IMG/VR virus record: IMGVR_UViG_2698536443_000023
Coordinates: 1 to 25,114 of that record
Length of the DNA stretch: 25,114 nt
Origin: a virus
Taxonomy: Duplodnaviria; Heunggongvirae; Uroviricota; Caudoviricetes
Direction: 5' to 3' (one strand)
Shown piece after piece: positions 3,894 through 24,650 of this stretch (position 1 is the first letter of the stretch; each line of letters opens with the position of its first letter). Position numbers and translations under genes: made by a program. The notes below the pieces were generated by a model that ran no database searches, was not told where the DNA came from, and saw only the letters and a list, made by a program, of their open reading frames with translations.

Positions 3894-4165
3894 GTATTCG
3901 TATTGAAATTGGCGAACGTTATGTCGTTACCAGTGACAGCTTTCAGTTTATTCTCCACGAGAAAAAGAGAGCGGAAAGCGGTAAAAACGCCGGTCAGGAA
4001 TGGCTGGCGGTGGTTGGTTATTACCCGAAATTAAGCCAGCTCGTTTCCGGCCTGATGCATCACGATATTCTGACCGGAAGCGCAAAGTCTTTTGCTGATT
4101 TAAACGCGCAGGTTGAGCAACTCAGCAAGCGTTGTTCAGAGGCTTTTGGCTCATATGGCCGTTAA
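3890..4165 (+). CDS. Hypothetical early protein (P2 orf83-like)
   Basis: 91-aa ORF with ATGA overlap to the upstream gene; conserved position before A. Confidence 0.55.
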   Translation: MSIRIEIGERYVVTSDSFQFILHEKKRAESGKNAGQEWLAVVGYYPKLSQLVSGLMHHDILTGSAKSFADLNAQVEQLSKRCSEAFGSYGR

Positions 4166-6410
4166 AGCCTCCGGGCGTTTTGTCCCTCCGTCAGCATTTG
4201 CCGCAGGCACCGGTAAGACGTTTACCGGTGCTTATGCATGGAACGCGCCACGCGAGGCTGTCGGGCGCGAAAGACCCCTTACACGTGACGAGATGCGTCA
4301 GGTGCAAGGTGTTTTATCCACGATTAATCGCCTGCCTTACTTTTTGCGCTCGCTGTTTACTTCACGCTATGACTACATCCGGCGCAATAAAAGCCCGGTG
4401 CACGGGTTTTATTTCCTCACATCTACTTTTCAGCGTCGTTTATGGCCGCGCATTGAGCGTGTGAATCAGCGCCATGAAATGAACACCGACGCGTCGTTGC
4501 TGTTTCTGGCAGAGCGTGACCACTATGCGCGCCTGCCGGGAATGAATGACAAGGAGCTGAAAAAGTTTGCCGCCCGTATCTCATCGCAGCTTTTCATGAT
4601 GTATGAGGAACTCAGCGATGCCTGGGTGGATGCGCATGGCGAAAAAGAATCGCTGTTTACGGATGAGGCGCAGGCGCATCTGTATGGTCATGTTGCTGGC
4701 GCTGCACGTGCTTTCAATATTTCCCCGCTTTACTGGAAAAAATACCGTAAAGGACAGATGACCACGAGGCAGGCATATTCTGCCATTGCCCGTCTGTTTA
4801 ACGATGAGTGGTGGACTCATCAGCTTAAAGGTCAGCGTATGCGCTGGCATGAGGCGTTACTGATTGCTGTCGGGGAGGTCAATAAAGACCGTTCTCCTTA
4901 TGCCAGTAAACATGCCATTCGTGATGTGCGTGCGCGCCGCCAGGCAAATCTGGAATTTCTTAAATCGTGTGACCTCGAAAACAGGGAAACCGGCGAGCGC
5001 ATCGACCTTATCAGTAAGGTGATGGGCAGTATTTCTAATCCTGAAATTCGCCGGATGGAGCTGATGAACACCATTGCCGGTATTGAGCGTTACGCCGCCG
5101 CAGAGGGTGATGTGGGGATGTTTATCACGCTGACCGCGCCGTCAAAGTATCACCCGACACGTCAGGTCGGAAAAGGCGAAAGTAAAACCGTTCAGCTTAA
5201 TCACGGCTGGAACGATGAGGCATTTAATCCAAAGGATGCGCAGCGTTATCTCTGCCGTATCTGGAGCCTGATGCGCACGGCATTCAAGGATAATGATTTA
5301 CAGGTCTACGGTTTGCGAGTCGTCGAGCCACACCACGACGGAACGCCGCACTGGCATATGATGCTTTTTTGTCATCCACGCCAGCGTAACCAGATTATCG
5401 AAATCATGCGTCGCTATGCGCTCAAAGAGGATGGCGACGAAAGAGGAGCCGCGCGAAACCGTTTTCAGGCAAAACACCTTAACCGGGGCGGTGCTGCGGG
5501 ATATATCGCGAAATACATCTCAAAAAACATCGACGGCTATGCACTGGATGGTCAGCTCGATAATGATACCGGTAGGCCGCTGAAAGACACAGCTGCGGCT
5601 GTTACCGCATGGGCGTCAACGTGGCGCATTCCGCAATTTAAAACGGTTGGTCTGCCGACAATGGGGGCTTACCGTGAACTACGCAAATTGCCTCGTGGCG
5701 TCAGCATTGCTGATGAGTTTGACGAGCGCGTCGAGGCTGCACGCGCCGCTGCAGACAGTGGTGATTTTGCGTTGTATATCAGCGCGCAGGGCGGGGCAAA
5801 TGTCCCGCGCGATTGTCAGACTGTCAGGGTCGCCCGTAGCCCGTCGGATGACGTTAACGAGTACGAGGAAGAAGTCGAGAGAGTGGTCGGCATTTACGCG
5901 CCGCATCTCGGCGCGCGTCATATTCATATCACCAGAACGACGAACTGGCGCATTGTTCCGAAAGTGCCGGTCGTTGAGCCTTTGACTTTAAAAAGCGGCT
6001 TCGCCGCGCCTCGGAGTCCTGTCAATAACTGTGGAAAGCTCACCGGTGGTGATACTTCGTTACCGGCTCCCACACCTTCTGAGCACGCCGCAGCTGTGCT
6101 TAATCTGGTTGATGACGGTGTTATCGAATGGAGTGACCCGGAGGTTGTGAGGGTGCTCAGGGGCGCATTAAAACACGACCTGAGAACACCAAACCGTCAG
6201 CAAAGAAACGGAAGCCCGTTAAAACCACATGAAATAGCGCCATCAGCCAGGCTGACCCGGTCGGAACGATTTCAAATTACCCGTATCCGCGTTGACCTTG
6301 CTCAGAACGGTATCAGGCCGCAGCGATGGGAGCTTGAGGCACTGACGCGTGGGGCAACCGTAAATTATGACGGGAAAAAATTCAAATATCCGGTGATTGA
6401 TGAGTGGTAA
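4155..6410 (+). CDS. A: Replication initiation protein A (rolling-circle nicking endonuclease)
   Basis: Large ORF; product from MAVKASGRFVPP matches the P2 A N-terminus as recalled. Contains HUH-like motif (PHWHMMLF) and catalytic tyrosine region (YIAKYISK). Alternative in-frame start at 4113. Confidence 0.9.
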   Translation: MAVKASGRFVPPSAFAAGTGKTFTGAYAWNAPREAVGRERPLTRDEMRQVQGVLSTINRLPYFLRSLFTSRYDYIRRNKSPVHGFYFLTSTFQRRLWPRIERVNQRHEMNTDASLLFLAERDHYARLPGMNDKELKKFAARISSQLFMMYEELSDAWVDAHGEKESLFTDEAQAHLYGHVAGAARAFNISPLYWKKYRKGQMTTRQAYSAIARLFNDEWWTHQLKGQRMRWHEALLIAVGEVNKDRSPYASKHAIRDVRARRQANLEFLKSCDLENRETGERIDLISKVMGSISNPEIRRMELMNTIAGIERYAAAEGDVGMFITLTAPSKYHPTRQVGKGESKTVQLNHGWNDEAFNPKDAQRYLCRIWSLMRTAFKDNDLQVYGLRVVEPHHDGTPHWHMMLFCHPRQRNQIIEIMRRYALKEDGDERGAARNRFQAKHLNRGGAAGYIAKYISKNIDGYALDGQLDNDTGRPLKDTAAAVTAWASTWRIPQFKTVGLPTMGAYRELRKLPRGVSIADEFDERVEAARAAADSGDFALYISAQGGANVPRDCQTVRVARSPSDDVNEYEEEVERVVGIYAPHLGARHIHITRTTNWRIVPKVPVVEPLTLKSGFAAPRSPVNNCGKLTGGDTSLPAPTPSEHAAAVLNLVDDGVIEWSDPEVVRVLRGALKHDLRTPNRQQRNGSPLKPHEIAPSARLTRSERFQITRIRVDLAQNGIRPQRWELEALTRGATVNYDGKKFKYPVIDEW

Positions 6411-6584: not shown

Positions 6585-7868
6585 TTATTGTGGCCAGTCC
6601 CAGTTATCATATTGTCGAATTTTTTCTGATAACACTTGAGGCGCGCTACCGTGAGTTACATTTTCAGCATAACCAATCGTGCCGACATAGTTAATATCAT
6701 CAATATCAAGTGTATTGGCGTCCCATGGCCGTATCTTGCGAGTTGGTTCACAGATAGAAACGTCACGATTGATGGTTTTTAACCACGAGATATTTATTAC
6801 TTTTGCGCCTGCAGCTTTTAGATACATCCTGGCTGTTTCATGAGCATTTCCTTCAGTGCAAAAATCATCAATAACTAATATTTTCTTACCTTTCAAGTTC
6901 GGCGGGTTGGTATATCTTTTGCCGGTGTTGATATTTTTAATAGGGGCAGGGTTTAAATGAACGGTATTTATTTGAGATGTGATGTTTACTTCTTGTTTAG
7001 CTATTCGGGCTTGCTGTGACTTAATGGCTGTTGTATGTCGTAAGAATAGATCTTTTAAATACTTTCCTTTGAATGAGACCGCCAAACCTTTTAGGTCATG
7101 CTCCATAATATCTGCTAGTTTATAAGGGTTTTCAGCGTTATGTCCAACGTAGGTGGTTATAAAACTTGCTCCCTCACTTAAGCCAGAGAAATAAATGCTG
7201 GCACCAAGATATCTTATCCAAAAATCGGGGCTTCCAACCGATAGCTTGGCGAGGTCTCTTGCATTGGCTGAATACATTGTAAATTCAGTGACATATGTGC
7301 TAAATGGTGCCAAGGCGTAGTAGTGAACATCTTCATTAAAATGCCCTTGCCATCCCCACAACTGTTCTCTTAAGCAAAAAACATCAATAAATCTAGCGAT
7401 CTCTTTGGGTTCTGAAAATTGAAAACCGTACTCAGTAACCGGTTCATACCAGGTTGCATTAATAAATAGGGTGTTACCGTTGGTAGCTGCTTGTAAGTCT
7501 TCCCGAGAACGCCCAACATAGATCATTTCGTTTCGTTTCAACTCTAATGCAGCCATGATGAAATCTATGGCCTTCCCTGTTTGTTTTGCTGGTATGTTGT
7601 TGTCGAGTTCATGGCAAAAGTGAATTGATTCTGGGAATTTCCTTTTTAGGTATTCGTCTAGTGTTACGACCCCGTCATGTGTTTCCACGTTTCTATTTTT
7701 ATTTGTCAAGAAGATAACTTTAATCCCTTTTGATGACAAAAACGCAAACAACTTACGCAATTCCGAGTCGATTCTAGATTTTAGTTCCTGAGGTTGAGTG
7801 TTAGATGTTAATGGTAATACAACATCTGCGATTGAAAATATAACTGCCTTTAAATACATACTATTCAT
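6585..7868 (-). CDS. Phosphoribosyltransferase (PRTase)-like protein, cargo in the tin/old hotspot
   Basis: 427-aa ORF. Type I PRTase PRPP-binding-like motif KKILVIDDFCTEGNAHE at residues about 328-345 (nt about 6849-6884). Start overlaps upstream gene stop (alternative ATG at 7859). AT-rich relative to the phage backbone. Confidence 0.75.
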   Translation of the reverse strand: MNSMYLKAVIFSIADVVLPLTSNTQPQELKSRIDSELRKLFAFLSSKGIKVIFLTNKNRNVETHDGVVTLDEYLKRKFPESIHFCHELDNNIPAKQTGKAIDFIMAALELKRNEMIYVGRSREDLQAATNGNTLFINATWYEPVTEYGFQFSEPKEIARFIDVFCLREQLWGWQGHFNEDVHYYALAPFSTYVTEFTMYSANARDLAKLSVGSPDFWIRYLGASIYFSGLSEGASFITTYVGHNAENPYKLADIMEHDLKGLAVSFKGKYLKDLFLRHTTAIKSQQARIAKQEVNITSQINTVHLNPAPIKNINTGKRYTNPPNLKGKKILVIDDFCTEGNAHETARMYLKAAGAKVINISWLKTINRDVSICEPTRKIRPWDANTLDIDDINYVGTIGYAENVTHGSAPQVLSEKIRQYDNWDWPQ

Positions 7869-8910
7869 CTCCCAGAAGAGAAAGTTGCTGTGTTTTTACA
7901 CCGGATGCTGATTTAATTAAGTTTTGAACGTCTTTAAAATCGGATAGTGGAATGTTCATTATCGTAGCTGAGTACTCCGACAAGGCATGTTTAATTTCTT
8001 CTTGAGGTGTGGTTCCCCTAAGTAAAGGACAAAGTATCGCTCTTTTTAATTGAGCTGCATATCTCACAGTATGAGATGTCCCACTTTTTAGGCCCCATTC
8101 AACTGGGATTAATACATCACTTAAAGCTGCTTGAATTCTATTTCTACGAACAAAGTTTTCCTGTGATGGCTTTTGGTTTGGTAAATACTCAGTAAGAATC
8201 AGTCCGCCATTATTAACAATATGGCCTCTCATCTCGCCACTATTTTTGGGGTAATTTGAGTTTACACCTGTACCTAGCACAGCAATTGTCGGTATTTTAA
8301 ATAATAGGGATGCTTCATGTGCAGATTGATCTATACCATATGCTAAACCGCTTACAGTTGAATAATCTGAATCTATAAATTGTGAGATTACTGCTTGAGT
8401 TAAATAAATTCCAAGCGCGGTTGGGTTTCTAGTGCCGACAACTCCAACACACTTTTTATCTAGCAAAGATACATCGCCTTGAGCAAACAACCAGAAAGGC
8501 GGTTCAGACAGGTCATTCAACTTGTCTGGATAGTTTGGAGAACCATGGTGGATAATTTTGTAACCACTATTATGATAATGTGTGAGTAAGATTTTAGCCG
8601 TAGAAATCATGCGGTCCCGAAAAACAGACCAATTGCTTTCATTCAAATAATAAGGTTGGCGATGAAGTTTTACTCCGAGTAGATACTCAAAGTTGGCTAA
8701 TGTTTGGCTGGTAACAATGTCTCTAAATCTGATTCCCTTTTGAGCAACTTTATATAGAGTCCAATAACTCACGCCATGTATTTCTGATAGTGCCAACAAA
8801 GCGGCACTTTCTGTGTTCCATCGAGCTGTTTCAATATCCGTCATAATGTTCGCCAAAATGGAAGATTTTTTATCGCTTTTATCATAGGTTTGTATAAAAG
8901 TGTAGCACAT
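7861..8910 (-). CDS. DprA/Smf-like (SLOG superfamily Rossmann-fold) protein, cargo in the tin/old hotspot
   Basis: 349-aa ORF. Central region VGVVGTRNPTALG...VSGLAYGIDQSAHEASL...IAVLGTGVNSNYPKNS...RRNRIQAALSDVLIPVEWGLKSGTSHT matches the conserved DprA Rossmann core (VGsR, SGlAxGID, AVLGxG..YP, RNRI, SGSL/T). Overlaps the downstream PRTase gene by 8 nt. Confidence 0.8.
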   Translation of the reverse strand: MCYTFIQTYDKSDKKSSILANIMTDIETARWNTESAALLALSEIHGVSYWTLYKVAQKGIRFRDIVTSQTLANFEYLLGVKLHRQPYYLNESNWSVFRDRMISTAKILLTHYHNSGYKIIHHGSPNYPDKLNDLSEPPFWLFAQGDVSLLDKKCVGVVGTRNPTALGIYLTQAVISQFIDSDYSTVSGLAYGIDQSAHEASLLFKIPTIAVLGTGVNSNYPKNSGEMRGHIVNNGGLILTEYLPNQKPSQENFVRRNRIQAALSDVLIPVEWGLKSGTSHTVRYAAQLKRAILCPLLRGTTPQEEIKHALSEYSATIMNIPLSDFKDVQNLIKSASGVKTQQLSLLGDE

Positions 8911-9235: not shown

Positions 9236-10270
9236 TCAGCCGTTGTCAGTGTCCAGTGAGTAGTTTTTAAAGCGGATGACCTCCTGACCGAGCCAGCCGT
9301 TTATCTCGCGGATCCTGTCCTGTAGCGGGATAAGCTCATTGCGGACAAAGACCTTTGCCACTTTCTCAATATCACCCAGCGACCCGACGTTCTCCGGCTT
9401 GCCGCCCATCAACTGAAAGGGGATGCGGTGCGCGTCCAGCAGGTCAGCGGCGCTGGCTTTTTTGATATTAAAAAAATCGTCCTTCGTTGCCACTTCACTG
9501 AGCGGGATAATTTTGATGCCGTCGGCTTTCCCCTGTGGGGCATAGAGAAACAGATTTTTAAAGTTGTTGCGGCCTTTCGACTTCACCATGTTTTCGCGGA
9601 GCATTTCGATATCGTTGCGATCCTGTACGGCATCAGTGACGTACATGATGTATCCGGCATGAGCGCCGTTTTCGTAATACTTGCGGCGGAACAGTGTGGC
9701 TGATTCATTCAGCCAGGCAGAATTAAGGGCGCTGAGATATTCCGGCAGGCCGTACAGCTCCTGATTGATATCCGGCTCCAGCAGGTGAAACACGGAGCCG
9801 GGCGTGAAGGCTGTCGGCTCGTTGAAGGACGGCACCCACCAGTAAACATCCTCCTCCACGCCACGGCGGGTATATTTTGCCGGTGAGGTTTCCAGTCTGA
9901 TGACCTTACCGGTGGTGCTGTAACGCTTTTCCAGAAACGCATTACCGAACACCAGAAAATCCAGCACAAAGCGGCTGAAATCCTGTTGCGAAAGCCACGG
10001 ATGCGGGATAAATGTCGAGGCCAGAATATTGCGTTTAACGTAAATCGGTGAGCTGTGATGCACGGCAGCACGCAGACTTTTTGCCAGACCGGTAAAGCTG
10101 ACCGGTGGCTCATACCATCTGCCGTTACTGATGCACTCGACGTAATCCAGAATGTCACGGCGGTCGAGTACCGGCACCGGCTCACCAAAGGTGAATGCCT
10201 CCATTTTCGGGGCGCTGGCGGTCATTTTTTTTGCCGCAGGTTGCGGTGTTTTCCCTTTTTTCTTGCTCAT
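9236..10270 (-). CDS. Q: Portal (capsid) protein Q
   Basis: 344-aa ORF matching P2 Q in size and in position, leftward from the divergent late promoter region and next to cos. Confidence 0.95.
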   Translation of the reverse strand: MSKKKGKTPQPAAKKMTASAPKMEAFTFGEPVPVLDRRDILDYVECISNGRWYEPPVSFTGLAKSLRAAVHHSSPIYVKRNILASTFIPHPWLSQQDFSRFVLDFLVFGNAFLEKRYSTTGKVIRLETSPAKYTRRGVEEDVYWWVPSFNEPTAFTPGSVFHLLEPDINQELYGLPEYLSALNSAWLNESATLFRRKYYENGAHAGYIMYVTDAVQDRNDIEMLRENMVKSKGRNNFKNLFLYAPQGKADGIKIIPLSEVATKDDFFNIKKASAADLLDAHRIPFQLMGGKPENVGSLGDIEKVAKVFVRNELIPLQDRIREINGWLGQEVIRFKNYSLDTDNG

Positions 10271-20908: not shown

Positions 20909-23158
20909 ATGAGCACAAAATTCAGAACCGTTATCACCACTGCCGGTGCAGCAAAGCTGGCAGCGGCAACCGCACCGGGAGGGCGGAAGGTCAACATTAC
21001 CACGATGGCCGTCGGGGATGGCGGTGGTAAATTGCCTGTCCCGGATGCCGGACAGACCGGGCTTATCCACGAAGTCTGGCGACATGCGCTGAACAAAATC
21101 AGCCAGGACAAACGAAACAGTAATTATATTATCGCAGAGCTGGTTATTCCGCCGGAGGTGGGCGGTTTCTGGATGCGTGAACTTGGCCTGTACGATGATG
21201 CGGGAACGCTAATTGCCGTGGCGAACATGGCCGAAAGTTATAAGCCAGCCCTTGCCGAAGGCTCAGGGCGTTCGCAGACCTGCCGCATGGTCATCATCGT
21301 CAGCAGTGTGGCCTCAGTGGAGCTGACCATTGACACCACAACGGTGATGGCGACGCAGGATTACGTTGATGACAAAATTGCAGAGCACGAACAGTCACGA
21401 CGTCACCCGGACGCTTCTCTGACCGCAAAAGGTTTTACTCAGTTAAGCAGCGCGACCAACAGCACGTCTGAAACACTGGCCGCAACGCCGAAAGCAGTAA
21501 AGACCGCCTATGACCTTGCTAACGGGAAATATACTGCGCAGGATGCCACCACAGCGCGAAAAGGTCTTGTCCAACTCAGTAGTGCCACCAACAGCACGTC
21601 TGAAACGCTCGCCGCAACACCAAAAGCGGTTAAGGCAGCATATGACCTTGCTAATGGCAAATACACCGCGCAGGACGCCACCACCGCGCGAAAAGGCCTT
21701 GTTCAGCTCAGTAGTGCCACCAACAGCGATTCTGAAACGCTTGCGGCAACGCCAAAGGCGGTTAAGGCCGCGTATGACCTTGCTAACGGGAAATACACTG
21801 CACAGGATGCCACCACGGCGCGGAAAGGCCTTGTCCAGCTCAGTAGCGCCACCAACAGTGATTCTGAAACGCAGGCCGCAACACCAAAAGCGGTGAAGTC
21901 TGCCTATGACAATGCTGAAAAACGTCTTCAGAAAGATCAGAACGGTGCGGATATTCCTGATAAAGGACGCTTCCTGAGTAACATTAATGTTTACAGCAAA
22001 GGTGAAGTGGATAAGAAAAAGGGAATGCGAAAGTATTCGTTTGCAGCCCCTGCAAATGTCGTTGCCGGGAAGTGGTATCCCGTTATCTTTCGCCGTGCTG
22101 CCAGCCTTTCAGGAGAAATGGCATCCCGCGTCGTTATTTCCACTGGTTGTTATAACAGCGATTATGTAATGAATAACTGCGAGTTTAATGGCATGGTTAT
22201 GCCCGGAGGCTGGACTGATCGTGGTTCATATGCGGCAGGTTATTTCTGGACGTATCAGACTAATGAGCGTTCAATCCATTCCATTGTTACAAGCCTGAAA
22301 GATGATGATGTATGTAGTGTTTTTTATGTTGAAGCCAGAGCTTTCCCTGTGCAAATTCTTGCAGAGGAAGGGCTAACGGTTATTGTTCCGACAGAGGATT
22401 ATGTCGTCGGTCAAACGACATATAAGTGGGGGGCAACTAATCCTGCTACAGAAAGCACGAACGCACAGGCTATTCTGGATTTTAAAAATGGGCGCGGTTA
22501 TTACTGCTCACATCCATTTATTTCCAGCCTTTCGGGAAATGCTGCAACAGCAACGAAGTTAGCGAACGCAAGAAATATTAATGGTGTCAGATTTGATGGC
22601 TCTGCTGATATAAATATTAATACACTGGTATCCAGAAACCGTGTTACTGCATTAGGTGGGAGCGTAAAGGGGACACCAGGTATTCAGATGTATGAGGCAT
22701 ACAACAATGGCTACCCAACAGCCTATGGTAATGTGCTTCATCTCACTGGCGTAACCGCAGTAGGAGAGGGTGAGTTACTTATTGGCTGGAGTGGAACCAG
22801 CGGTGCTCATGCTCCGGCATATATTCGCTCCCGACGAGATACCACAGATGCTAACTGGTCTGGATGGGCGCAACTATATACAACTGCTCATAAACCCTCA
22901 GCGGGAGATGTTGGTGCATACACCAAAGCTGAATCAGATTCACGTTATGTGAGAGACATGCGGCTGGGCGGTGCATCTACATATAAACCAGCAAATAATG
23001 GTACTACATGGACGCATCAGGCTCCGTCAGGTTGCGTATATACCGGCATTATTGTTCAGGATACCGGCTCAAACTCTGCCGATAACATTGGTGGCGTATA
23101 TTACAGACCGGTGCAGAAATACATTAACGGGACATGGTATAACGTGGCGCAGGTATAA
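20909..23158 (+). CDS. H: Tail fibre protein H, with expanded internal tail-fibre repeats and divergent distal domain
   Basis: 749-aa ORF in the P2 H position. Contains the tail-fibre repeat motif (QLSSATNS.SETLAATPKAVK). The distal half is AT-rich and looks mosaic. Confidence 0.9.
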   Translation: MSTKFRTVITTAGAAKLAAATAPGGRKVNITTMAVGDGGGKLPVPDAGQTGLIHEVWRHALNKISQDKRNSNYIIAELVIPPEVGGFWMRELGLYDDAGTLIAVANMAESYKPALAEGSGRSQTCRMVIIVSSVASVELTIDTTTVMATQDYVDDKIAEHEQSRRHPDASLTAKGFTQLSSATNSTSETLAATPKAVKTAYDLANGKYTAQDATTARKGLVQLSSATNSTSETLAATPKAVKAAYDLANGKYTAQDATTARKGLVQLSSATNSDSETLAATPKAVKAAYDLANGKYTAQDATTARKGLVQLSSATNSDSETQAATPKAVKSAYDNAEKRLQKDQNGADIPDKGRFLSNINVYSKGEVDKKKGMRKYSFAAPANVVAGKWYPVIFRRAASLSGEMASRVVISTGCYNSDYVMNNCEFNGMVMPGGWTDRGSYAAGYFWTYQTNERSIHSIVTSLKDDDVCSVFYVEARAFPVQILAEEGLTVIVPTEDYVVGQTTYKWGATNPATESTNAQAILDFKNGRGYYCSHPFISSLSGNAATATKLANARNINGVRFDGSADININTLVSRNRVTALGGSVKGTPGIQMYEAYNNGYPTAYGNVLHLTGVTAVGEGELLIGWSGTSGAHAPAYIRSRRDTTDANWSGWAQLYTTAHKPSAGDVGAYTKAESDSRYVRDMRLGGASTYKPANNGTTWTHQAPSGCVYTGIIVQDTGSNSADNIGGVYYRPVQKYINGTWYNVAQV
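21428..21907 (+). repeat. In-frame tandem repeats, 132-bp unit (44 aa), about 3.6 copies, inside H
   Basis: Copies start at 21428, 21560, 21692 and 21824. Unit KGLVQLSSATNS(T/D)SETLAATPKAVKAAYDLANGKYTAQDATTAR is near-identical between copies; the last copy diverges after PKAVKSAYD. Confidence 0.85.
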
Positions 23159-23161
23159 TTT

Positions 23162-23689
23162 ATGCAGCATTTGATAAATATAACGGCGGGTAATCCAAAA
23201 ACGGTTGAACAATATCAATTGACAAAGAATTTTGATGTTGTCTGGTTTTTTTCAGAAGATGGTAAGAACTGGTACGAAGAACAAAAGTATTTTGCTGATG
23301 ACACGATAAAAATAGCGTACGACAAAGATAATATCATCCACTATGTGGAAAAGGATGTGACAGCTATCAGACCGGATGGATTAAGTGTTGTTGAAGTGGC
23401 GGATATTACTGCTAACCGACGGGCGGACATTTCAGGGAACTGGATGTTTAAGGACGGCAAAGTGATTAAACGCATTTATACGGCAGAGGAATTACAGCAG
23501 CAGGCAGAAATTCGGAAAGCCAGACTTCTTGCAGATGCTGAATCCGTGATTTTGCCGCTGGAGCGCGCGGTCAGACTGAACATGGCAACAGATGAGGAGC
23601 GTAGCCGACTGGAATCATGGGAACGCTACAGCGTTCTGGTCAGTCGTGTGGATCCTGCAAATCCTGAATGGCCGGAAATGCCACAATAA
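23162..23689 (+). CDS. G: Tail fibre assembly chaperone G
   Basis: 175-aa ORF directly downstream of H, matching P2 G in size and position (tail fibre assembly protein family). Confidence 0.9.
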
Positions 23690-23879: not shown

Positions 23880-24650
23880 TTACTCTTTAGCTCGTTTGGT
23901 CATCTCATTTGCTAACTGTGTAGACCAATAATGTTGACTCTTTGCTTCTAATATGAAAAGTAGCGCTCTCACACATTGTAGCTGAGCATGCACATAAGTA
24001 TGAATATTACCAACCGAAGTAGGAACTAAGTGGGTTTCAGGTGTGTAGTAGTGGTAGATGCTCGTTTGTGAAGGATGAACATATTCGCTAAGTATGTCAT
24101 AAGTCAGTTCAAAATCACTTTCCATCTGATTAGTCTGCTTCATCTCATCTTTATAGAGTTCGCGTAAAGCAGTCATCACATGCATACTGACAGCAAGTAG
24201 GTTTTCAAAACGATATTTAGCCTCCTCAGTAAACATGTAGTCGTTCGGGTCAAATACTTCTTTCTGAATCTTTTCTTGCTCTGACTTTTTAAATCGAGAA
24301 CTATTCGTAAAGTTCAATATAACTTCGATAGCGTTATCTACACTTGCGTGTCCATTTTGGGTAGTCAAAATTTTCTCTACTTTCTTGTTTAAGAGTCGTG
24401 AGAAGGCATGAGTTTCAATCATTCCTCGGCTAACAATACAAGCGCTTTGGTATCGTTCGTTTTCGAGGAGGAGAAGCGCATCATCGAAGATGTCTATCTG
24501 CCTGTTCATAAGTAAATTGGCATAATTAACGAGATACAGTCCGCGGTCAGGGTTATATGTTTTTTCGACAATTACACCATTAATCTTGCTCAGCGCAGCT
24601 CTGGCGGCTTTTGCCTCATTCAGTCTCTGTTCTATAAGTTCTTTATACAT
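23880..24650 (-). CDS. Hypothetical protein of unknown function, cargo at the P2 Z/fun hotspot
   Basis: 256-aa ORF on the opposite strand to the flanking late genes. AAGGAAA Shine-Dalgarno before the ATG at 24650. Markedly AT-rich. No domain recognised. Occupies the variable locus between G and FI. Confidence 0.7.
   Translation of the reverse strand: MYKELIEQRLNEAKAARAALSKINGVIVEKTYNPDRGLYLVNYANLLMNRQIDIFDDALLLLENERYQSACIVSRGMIETHAFSRLLNKKVEKILTTQNGHASVDNAIEVILNFTNSSRFKKSEQEKIQKEVFDPNDYMFTEEAKYRFENLLAVSMHVMTALRELYKDEMKQTNQMESDFELTYDILSEYVHPSQTSIYHYYTPETHLVPTSVGNIHTYVHAQLQCVRALLFILEAKSQHYWSTQLANEMTKRAKE

Follow-up and report, generated by a model that had tools for sequence, protein, structure and literature searches.

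A tandem array of 44-residue repeat units in the tail fibre gene H of a P2-like prophage

Gene H and the layout of its repeat array

The window analysed here is a stretch of prophage DNA of 25,114 nucleotides (IMG/VR record IMGVR_UViG_2698536443_000023), which is 100% identical to the corresponding DNA of E. coli E47 (assembly GCF_029625135.1). In the sequence search concerned, 383 complete E. coli genomes had a query coverage of 80% or more. PF04865 (J), PF09684 (I), H and PF02413 (G) are read in this order in the window, and the gene order V-W-J-I-H-G is common to the window, reference P2 (NC_001895) and the RefSeq annotation of E47 (NZ_CP121151.1). In the latter, H is a single CDS named "tail fiber protein" and 23162..23689 is named "tail fiber assembly protein". 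The 5' part of H displays ~95-97% nucleotide identity to P2-group H genes by megablast, and the N-terminal attachment domain PF12571 is matched over profile positions 1-150 of 150 with an E-value of 1.5e-58. Judged by these sequence features, H is the P2-type tail fibre protein gpH of a P2-like (Peduovirus) prophage. A weak Pfam match to TPR_20, with 21 bits against a cut-off of 25, was discounted as resulting from the alanine richness of the repeat. The features referred to below are as follows.

20909..23158, plus strand: gene H, tail fibre protein of 749 aa (from the ORF list, Pfam, RefSeq annotation and P2 gene order)
20909..21361, plus strand: N-terminal tail-collar/baseplate-attachment domain, aa 1-151 (PF12571)
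21428..21559, plus strand: repeat unit 1, aa 174-217, KGFTQLSSATNSTSETLAATPKAVKTAYDLANGKYTAQDATTAR
21560..21691, plus strand: repeat unit 2, aa 218-261, KGLVQLSSATNSTSETLAATPKAVKAAYDLANGKYTAQDATTAR
21692..21823, plus strand: repeat unit 3, aa 262-305, KGLVQLSSATNSDSETLAATPKAVKAAYDLANGKYTAQDATTAR
21824..21910, plus strand: truncated repeat unit 4, aa 306-334, KGLVQLSSATNSDSETQAATPKAVKSAYDNAEKRLQKDQNGADI (array end by Tandem Repeats Finder)
21510..21896, plus strand: 128-aa open reading frame, offset +1 from the frame of H; not a gene, a by-product of the repeat
21770..21994, plus strand: segment aa 288-362, homologous to Mu S residues 99-173 (phmmer against 5yvq_A and 8ju3_A)
21956..23158, plus strand: distal fibre part, presumed receptor-binding half (from the resemblance of the tip to the Mu S/S' C-terminus)
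23162..23689, plus strand: gene G-like tail fibre assembly chaperone (PF02413, E 9.7e-34)

Tandem Repeats Finder reported one strong array, at 21455..21910, with a period of 132, 3.5 copies, 85% matches, no indels and a score of 646, and the remaining arrays within the window scored at most 42 each. The unit starts at 21428, 21560, 21692 and 21824 (residues 174, 218, 262 and 306) all lie in the frame of H, and PF03406 (Phage_fiber_2) is matched by the protein in four stretches with 266.4 bits against a gathering cut-off of 22 (E 5.3e-81). The layout fits membership of this family, i.e. tandem units of ~40 residues (132 nucleotides or 44 residues, no indels) inside a tail fibre protein. The first-pass annotation had described in-frame copies of a conserved tail-fibre repeat, and this description is borne out. 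Its count of four copies is right for the number of in-frame units but not for complete ones, as three full 44-residue units are followed by a fourth that retains only the first 28-29 residues of the repeat. Unit 4 keeps to the repeat as far as AATPKAVKSAY and is then followed by the Mu S-like junction segment. Because of this truncation the array end placed earlier at 21907 was a sensible one. The fourth copy has SETQAAT in place of SETLAAT.

The 128-aa reading frame had been regarded as spurious from the outset, and variation among relatives confirms this. It begins with an ATG and stays open over 387 nucleotides, and the ATG is retained in 42 of 42 distinct orthologous arrays, as might be expected of a real overlapping gene for a basic, proline/arginine-rich protein, but it coincides with conserved Tyr-Asp codons of H. 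Against such a gene, the frame is interrupted by internal stops in 38 of the 42 distinct orthologous four-unit arrays, and the 138 polymorphic columns are distributed 17/22/99 over positions 1/2/3 of the H-frame codons. Relatives differ from the window at 25.4 of 129 residues in the alternative frame and at 4.4 of 176 in that of H. Only 26-30 of 44 residues are identical between its three internal periods when the alternative frame is translated, and the RefSeq annotation of E47 has no CDS at 21510..21896. An overlapping gene is thus exceedingly unlikely, and annotation pipelines should not call this reading frame.

Age and inheritance of the units

Units 1-3 are 81-86% identical to each other in DNA and identical at 40-43 of 44 residues in protein, with 16-18 synonymous and 1-4 non-synonymous codon differences between them. 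The corresponding dS values are 0.81-1.21, at a dN/dS of 0.03-0.09. Consequently, the original reading of the copies as nearly identical in protein, diverged at synonymous sites and not derived from recent slippage is upheld; the units are old duplications in which the protein has been held nearly constant by purifying selection.

Comparison with other phages revealed that each unit shares 93-98% DNA identity with the unit at the same position in P22H4, P2DC1, fiAA91-ss and ECE228, but only 75-86% with the other positions of its own array. Unit 1 is 94% identical in nucleotides to unit 1 of P2 and 93-94% identical to unit 1 of P2DC1 and fiAA91-ss, while unit 2 has 93-94% identity to unit 2 of P22H4, P2DC1 and ECE228, as against 81-86% to units 1 and 3 of its own array. 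Likewise, unit 3 reaches 93-96% with the same-position units of relatives, and unit 4 reaches 94-98% with the last unit of P22H4, P2DC1, fiAA91-ss and ECE228. The units are inherited by position from phage to phage. In combination, the positional identity and the high dS indicate that the array is old and stably inherited, and that it is neither a product of slippage nor a likely artefact of assembly.

Duplications of single units do occur in relatives: units 3 and 4 of ECE228 are identical at 131 of 132 nucleotides, as are units 2 and 3 of L034. A recent expansion of the array within the present prophage, whether through slippage or through unequal crossing-over, would be of the same kind, but the units of the window are at most 86% identical in pairwise DNA comparison (dS 0.8-1.2), and for every one of them the nearest counterpart lies in another phage, not in its own array. 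Next to no credence can be given to such an expansion. A collapse or expansion of the repeat during assembly of the E47 genome also has to be considered, since the top database homologues are mostly labelled "partial", which suggests that breaks within or close to H are frequent in draft assemblies. Conversely, the units differ by 14-19% in DNA, so that short reads suffice to distinguish them, and the order 1-2-3-4, with its positional identity, recurs in 52 independent IMG/VR contigs as well as in isolated phages. An H with four units and a length of exactly 749 aa is found in eight IMG/VR contigs, and the source record is that of a complete genome. An assembly artefact is accordingly very improbable.

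Copy number, gain and loss of units, and the distal module

Unit counts in homologues were obtained with an HMM-based procedure. Among the 78 closest IMG/VR relatives, two units were found in 13, three in 3, four in 52 and five in 10, which supplies the comparison across related prophages that the first-pass annotation had proposed and shows that copy number varies. Fibres in species-representative genomes have 1-4 units, database homologues reach 6, and reference P2 has 2, while the isolated phages P22H4, 9W and vB_YpM_46 carry the same four units as the window. The description of the array as expanded is therefore valid relative to reference P2 only; four is the mode, and four units are the usual state of this lineage. 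Copy-number variation in gpH is not described in the PMC papers found to mention PF03406.

Changes in copy number are seen also between fibres that are otherwise alike. The distal type of the window (≥90% identity) is found in nine four-unit fibres, the window included, and in one five-unit fibre, that of ECE228, in which the extra copy of unit 3 differs at 1 of 132 nucleotides. Four distal types are found with two copy numbers each, unit 2 is absent from fiAA91-ss, leaving three units in total, and mosaic units are present in related fibres. The change of a whole unit within one fibre type, as exemplified by ECE228, supports in-register recombination. Gain or loss of whole units in register is an occasional event in arrays of this kind and leaves the remainder of the fibre unchanged; it might proceed via unequal homologous recombination or via replicative slippage from one unit to another. 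For RecA to recombine DNA efficiently, identical runs of ~21-23 nt are roughly the lower limit. In the window the identical in-register runs between units are no longer than 21-23 bases, and recombination inside this array should therefore be rare. Thus, the proposal that the array is a recombination substrate holds for arrays of this type, which do recombine in register, but the window's own array is a poor one.

In related fibres the last unit is always cut just past AATPKAVK, and the sequences that follow vary between a P2 type, a Mu S-like type and an ANDNANGRVP type. This pattern indicates an exchangeable distal, presumably receptor-binding half that is joined at the AATPKAVK of the shortened last unit. 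In the window, the Mu S-like segment at 21770..21994 covers the last unit together with the conserved junction DNAEKRLQKDQNGADIPDK, and the tip (aa 638-747, 22820..23149) resembles the C-terminus of Mu S/S' (8ju3_A residues 385-486, domain E 1.3e-16). For every distal type a single copy number predominates: P2-type tips always have 2 units, fibres with the Mu S-like junction mostly 4, and one type mostly 5. Copy number might accordingly be a selected, stepwise length setting that is matched to the distal module, with the near-saturated synonymous divergence between units itself maintained because the short identical runs (~21-23 nt) would guard against collapse of the array, and near-identical duplicates such as those of ECE228 would then be transient variants. 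We consider this unlikely, as shared ancestry explains one copy number per distal type more simply and fits as well as a functional length optimum.

Related fibres and the probable proximal shaft

The closest known systems are the gpH proteins of P2 and other Peduovirus phages (P22H4, 9W, vB_YpM_46, OU784750, fiAA91-ss and Wphi), which share the gene position, the PF12571 domain and the PF03406 units with H. Over the first 1643 nt of H, all four units included, P22H4 and 9W are 96.7% identical to it, and OU784750 (a P2 isolate) and vB_YpM_46 give a contiguous match to nt 1-1059. Reference P2, Wphi and P2_AC1 have 2 units and a distal half that differs from that of the window. Beyond this group, residues 117-160 of Mu S constitute one PF03406-type unit (E 1.5e-20 with the unit profile), the Mu S junction DNANARLAKDRNGADIPNK corresponds to that of H, and the C-terminal tips are related too. 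Still, Mu S/S' (gp49; chains in 5yvq, 8ju3 and 9ki1) has a single unit and an N-terminal attachment region unlike that of H. Homology among the fibres of P2, Mu, P1 and lambda was reportedly noted by Haggard-Ljungquist et al. in 1992 in work on the P2 tail fibre genes. E. coli lambdoid genes annotated as "prophage tail fiber N-terminal domain-containing" match the unit at ~84-86% in DNA, but the lambdoid proteins with this repeat have an N-terminal PF08400 domain in place of PF12571, and often collagen or coiled-coil stalks. PF03406 ("Pf2") was originally recognised in Stf, the side tail fibre of lambda, and collagen-like fibre proteins of EHEC prophages contain it as well; in 2012 little was known of its structure or function (PMC3368898). 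StfR of the K-12 Rac prophage was dropped as a many-unit comparison, as it has no PF03406 unit.

A more distant likeness is seen to the phage T4 fibres. When listed side by side, gp34 repeats and the units of H appear to share an ATxxRxG-strand-(A/S)(T/S)...(T/S)PKx(L/V) pattern. The motif order would be alike in gp34, gp12 and H, with a conserved Gly at the start of a beta-strand, then a variable loop, and (S/T)-P-K at the start of the central helix, and in both systems the repeats are arranged in tandem towards the proximal end of a fibre that is trimeric. The period is ~33-47 residues in T4, with variable loops, as opposed to a fixed 44 in H. An hhalign comparison of the unit with T4 gp34 profiles gave an end-to-end alignment with a P-value of 2.8e-4 and a probability of only 41%, which is too low to establish homology, and no significant match was obtained when T4 gp34 was searched with the unit HMM profiles. 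Sequence searches of the PDB with full-length H, the repeat region and a 20-unit profile matched the repeat to Mu S/S' only, and no T4 protein was among the matches. For full-length H there was a further match, at the C-terminus, to 9cuy, a chain named "short tail fiber". An AlphaFold2 monomer model of aa 151-400, from a 21-sequence alignment, reached a mean pLDDT of 41.3 and a pTM of 0.22, and its all-helical secondary structure is not trustworthy at this pLDDT.

With PF03406 units that follow the N-terminal domain and a last unit cut at the exchangeable distal half, the array very probably forms the proximal shaft of trimeric gpH. In the crystal structure of gp34 each repeat is a separate trimeric mixed alpha-beta fibrous domain (PMC5537660), and by analogy to gp34 and gp12 each unit of H would fold into a trimeric module of its own, and these modules would be stacked along the axis of the fibre. 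With one such module per unit, copy number would alter the reach of the fibre in fixed steps, leaving receptor specificity untouched.

Alternatively, the repeat could itself be a binding surface instead of a passive spacer. Its conserved partner might be the tail sheath (with the fibres docked in the retracted state), the assembly chaperone or some invariant component of the host surface, with copy number tuning avidity rather than length. The low dN/dS (0.03-0.09), the very strong protein conservation between unit positions and between phages whose distal halves are unrelated, and the occurrence of units in the fibres of Mu as well as of P2-like and lambdoid prophages are in line with this reading. 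Furthermore, an insertion in a T4 gp34 repeat has been proposed to contact the sheath (PMC5537660), and Mu fibres dock along the sheath in an in situ cryo-EM study in which the fibre was modelled at its N-terminus only (PMC11915804). However, a tightly intertwined trimeric fold predicts equally strong conservation, and functional fibres with 1 to 6 units exist, which implies that no particular unit number is required. A role as binding surface is consequently improbable, and a proximal shaft remains the preferred reading.

The array is real but ordinary, an arrangement already known. A curated Pfam family, an annotated fibre gene and the same four units in sequenced P2-group phages leave it little importance as a discovery. 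It nevertheless marks, just past AATPKAVK in the last unit, a natural re-tipping boundary of P2-type fibres, which is useful in the engineering of chimeric P2 or tailocin fibres. Likewise, the natural series of 1-6 units in otherwise identical fibres provides a ready-made test of the effect of fibre length on adsorption.

Gene H, its neighbours and its repeat array

The window is a P2-like (Peduovirus) prophage, and a 1082-nt query from it (20909..21990) matches the chromosome of the bovine E. coli strain E47 (complete genome, NZ_CP121151.1) at 100% identity.

Features of the window
6585..7868, minus strand, ShosT (PADLOC PDLC03012, E 1.3e-293)
7861..8910, minus strand, ShosA (PADLOC PDLC02997, E 2.5e-232; Pfam DprA-like PF02481)
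20909..23158, plus strand, H, 749 aa
21510..21896, plus strand, ORF in another frame within the H array, 128 aa
23162..23689, plus strand, lambda gpK / P2 G-type tail fibre assembly protein following H (PF02413)
23880..24650, minus strand, DUF5677 protein, 256 aa (PF18928, E 1.3e-10)

The ORF at 20909..23158 is assigned as gene H on the basis of its Pfam domains, the P2 gene order and its RefSeq label. Residues 1-151 form the N-terminal tail-collar fibre domain PF12571 (E 1.5e-58), and PF03406 (Phage_fiber_2) matches four stretches (E 5.3e-81; 266 bits, cut-off 22). Upstream lie genes homologous to P2 J (PF04865) and P2 I (PF09684), the order J-I-H-assembly gene being that of P2, and RefSeq annotates H as one CDS, 'tail fiber protein'. 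In the E47 RefSeq record, the locus tag of H (L111 3201..5450), P6H31_RS26995, breaks the numbering series between RS10480 and RS10495, which suggests that an earlier annotation split or flagged the gene before it was re-called as one CDS. The top database homologues of H are mostly labelled 'partial'; draft assemblies are therefore often broken in or just after H.

Elsewhere in the window, the overlapping ShosT and ShosA genes (6585..8910, minus strand) are assigned by PADLOC to the Shosta anti-phage system. Flanking them are replication gene A (4113..6410) and, on the other side, the next large ORF of the minus strand (9236..10270), presumably portal gene Q by P2 gene order; we take this site to be the P2 old/tin position, a known defence-cargo hotspot of P2-like phages. 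A second cargo site, directly downstream of the assembly gene and corresponding in position to fun(Z) of P2, holds the DUF5677 gene (RefSeq 'DUF5677 domain-containing protein'), for which PADLOC returned no match.

Tandem Repeats Finder, run on the whole window, reported one strong array at 21455..21910 (period 132, 3.5 copies, 85% matches, no indels, score 646), all others scoring ≤42. Units cut at 21428, 21560, 21692 and 21824 are all in the H frame (aa 174, 218, 262 and 306). Pairwise, units 1-3 are 81-86% identical in DNA and 40-43/44 in protein, with 16-18 synonymous and 1-4 non-synonymous codon differences. Unit 4 matches the repeat only up to ...AATPKAVKSAY and then reads DNAEKRLQKDQNGADI..., and the array thus consists of three complete units followed by a truncated one. 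The first-pass annotation, which had described four consecutive in-frame 132-bp copies, nearly identical in protein and diverged at synonymous sites, is accurate as a description, with the fourth copy truncated at its end coordinate of 21907, and its interpretation holds for the most part; its proposal that copy number sets shaft length is a hypothesis.

The 128-aa frame is open only because one unit happens to be stop-free there and is then repeated. Among 42 distinct orthologous four-unit arrays, 38 carry stops within it, and polymorphic columns fall on H-frame codon positions 1/2/3 as 17/22/99. Relatives differ from the window at 4.4/176 residues in the H frame against 25.4/129 in the alternative frame. 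With stops so frequent and variation following the H frame, this ORF is rejected as a gene, as the annotation had proposed in calling it spurious.

Age and copy number of the units

Nei-Gojobori estimates among units 1-3 gave dS 0.81-1.21, dN 0.03-0.08 and dN/dS 0.03-0.09. For comparison, units were taken from reference P2, P22H4, OU784750 (a second P2 isolate), fiAA91-ss, P2_AC1, Wphi and E. coli ECE228. Window units are 93-98% identical in DNA to same-position units of four- and five-unit relatives, against 75-86% to units at other positions; the four are therefore positional orthologues, inherited together. The duplications are much older than the divergence of the compared phages, and the unit protein sequence is under strong purifying selection. 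The old duplications and the positional orthology rule out recent slippage as the origin of the array, in agreement with the first-pass annotation. An assembly artefact is likewise very unlikely, since the units differ enough for short reads to resolve them and the unit order 1-2-3-4 is found again in other, independent assemblies as well as in isolated phages.

Reference P2 (NC_001895), Wphi and P2_AC1 have two units each (one full, one truncated), and fiAA91-ss has three (units 1, 3 and 4, without unit 2). By megablast, P22H4 and 9W are 96.7% identical to the window over nt 1-1643 of H, and several P2-group phages of Yersinia and E. coli match nt 1-1059 without a break, a stretch that takes in all four units. 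In a repeat-independent census, the N-terminal domain alone was used as query and the best 80 IMG/VR loci, all ≥98% identical there, were retained; H was readable in 78, with two units in 13 loci, three in 3, four in 52 and five in 10. Counts are 1-4 in species-representative genomes from other Enterobacterales and 3-6 among the best 120 database homologues. On this census four units is the mode for the lineage of the window (52/78 loci), and the array can be called 'expanded', as it had been, only relative to reference P2, not to its closest relatives.

Arrays of relatives differ by whole units, and the sequence comparisons support in-register gain and loss of such units. The complete genome ECE228 has five units, of which units 3 and 4 differ at 1/132 nt, and the related IMG/VR locus L034 has a unit pair identical at 131/132; many arrays are mosaic, with half-units closest to the neighbouring position. 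The longest in-register identical run between window units is 21-23 nt, which is about the shortest stretch that supports efficient RecA-dependent exchange in E. coli, and the window array should therefore be comparatively stable. Consequently, the proposal that the array is a recombination substrate applies to related arrays more than to the window array itself.

Distal halves and the module seam

In every fibre examined, the last unit ends just after AATPKAVK and is followed by one of several unrelated distal sequences. Mu protein S has one PF03406-type unit and then a junction identical in kind to that of the window. Because of this constant cut and the shared Mu S junction, AATPKAVK marks the seam for distal-module exchange between phage groups, in line with the proposal that L-413C GpH arose as a mosaic (PMC7460101). 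Unit DNA is ~84-86% identical to lambdoid prophage fibre genes in many E. coli genomes.

The H tip (aa 638-747; 22820..23149, plus strand) resembles the chimeric Mu S/S' tip (PDB 8ju3 residues 385-486, domain E 1.3e-16), and H is thus read as a mosaic of P2 N-terminus, PF03406 units, Mu S-like junction, middle part (without Pfam match) and Mu-like tip. The C-terminus bears a conserved ...INGTWYNVA motif. Reference P2 gpH (L024 1735..3744) and Rac StfR of K-12 (L113 5050..8412) match PF21446, the T4 gp34 C-terminal trimerisation domain, which Pfam does not find in the window H protein; K-12 StfR has no PF03406 unit.

Distal parts of the fibre proteins were clustered at ≥90% identity (related loci L031-L110, phage loci L024-L030 and the window).

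Unit numbers by distal type
Window type: 9 fibres with four units (window counted), 1 with five (ECE228)
Second type: 18 with four, 1 with five
Third type: 7 with five, 1 with three
Fourth type: 7 with four, 1 with three
P2-type halves (three largest two-unit clusters): two units in all 15

One distal type can thus occur with differing unit numbers. Across this set, copy number goes with the kind of distal module: it ranges from 3 to 5 among Mu S-like junction types, and each type has a predominant number, from which rare variants differ by one or two units. This may reflect ancestry or selection.

Proposed role of the array

The window unit (ATTARKG-LVQL-SS-ATNSDSETLAA-TPKAV) follows a motif logic like that of the T4 gp34/gp12 tandem repeats (ATxxRxG, strand, A-T, loop, (T/S)-P-K-x-L). 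In the crystal structure of gp34, every repeat of this kind forms its own 'mixed alpha-beta fibrous domain' (PMC5537660). The T4 and window repeat profiles aligned over their full length (P 2.8e-4, probability only 41%), and an HMM search for a link between gp34 and the window units gave no match; the analogy is suggestive rather than established. An AF2 monomer model of the repeat region was too poor to use (pLDDT 41). One PF03406-type unit is present in the sequences of the Mu protein S chains of the PDB, and the Mu in situ study modelled the fibre at its N-terminus only (PMC11915804).

The PF03406 family, P2 gpH, mosaic fibres and the four-unit allele are already present in public databases or sequenced phages. 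No paper was found that tabulates copy-number variation of PF03406 units in gpH; such differences are evident from sequences already available and are what a tandem structural repeat would be expected to show. Between the baseplate-attachment domain and a distal half that can be exchanged, the array forms a conserved tandem region of modular build. By analogy with T4, each unit would be a trimeric module of its own, stacked with the others along the fibre, and copy number would alter fibre reach stepwise.
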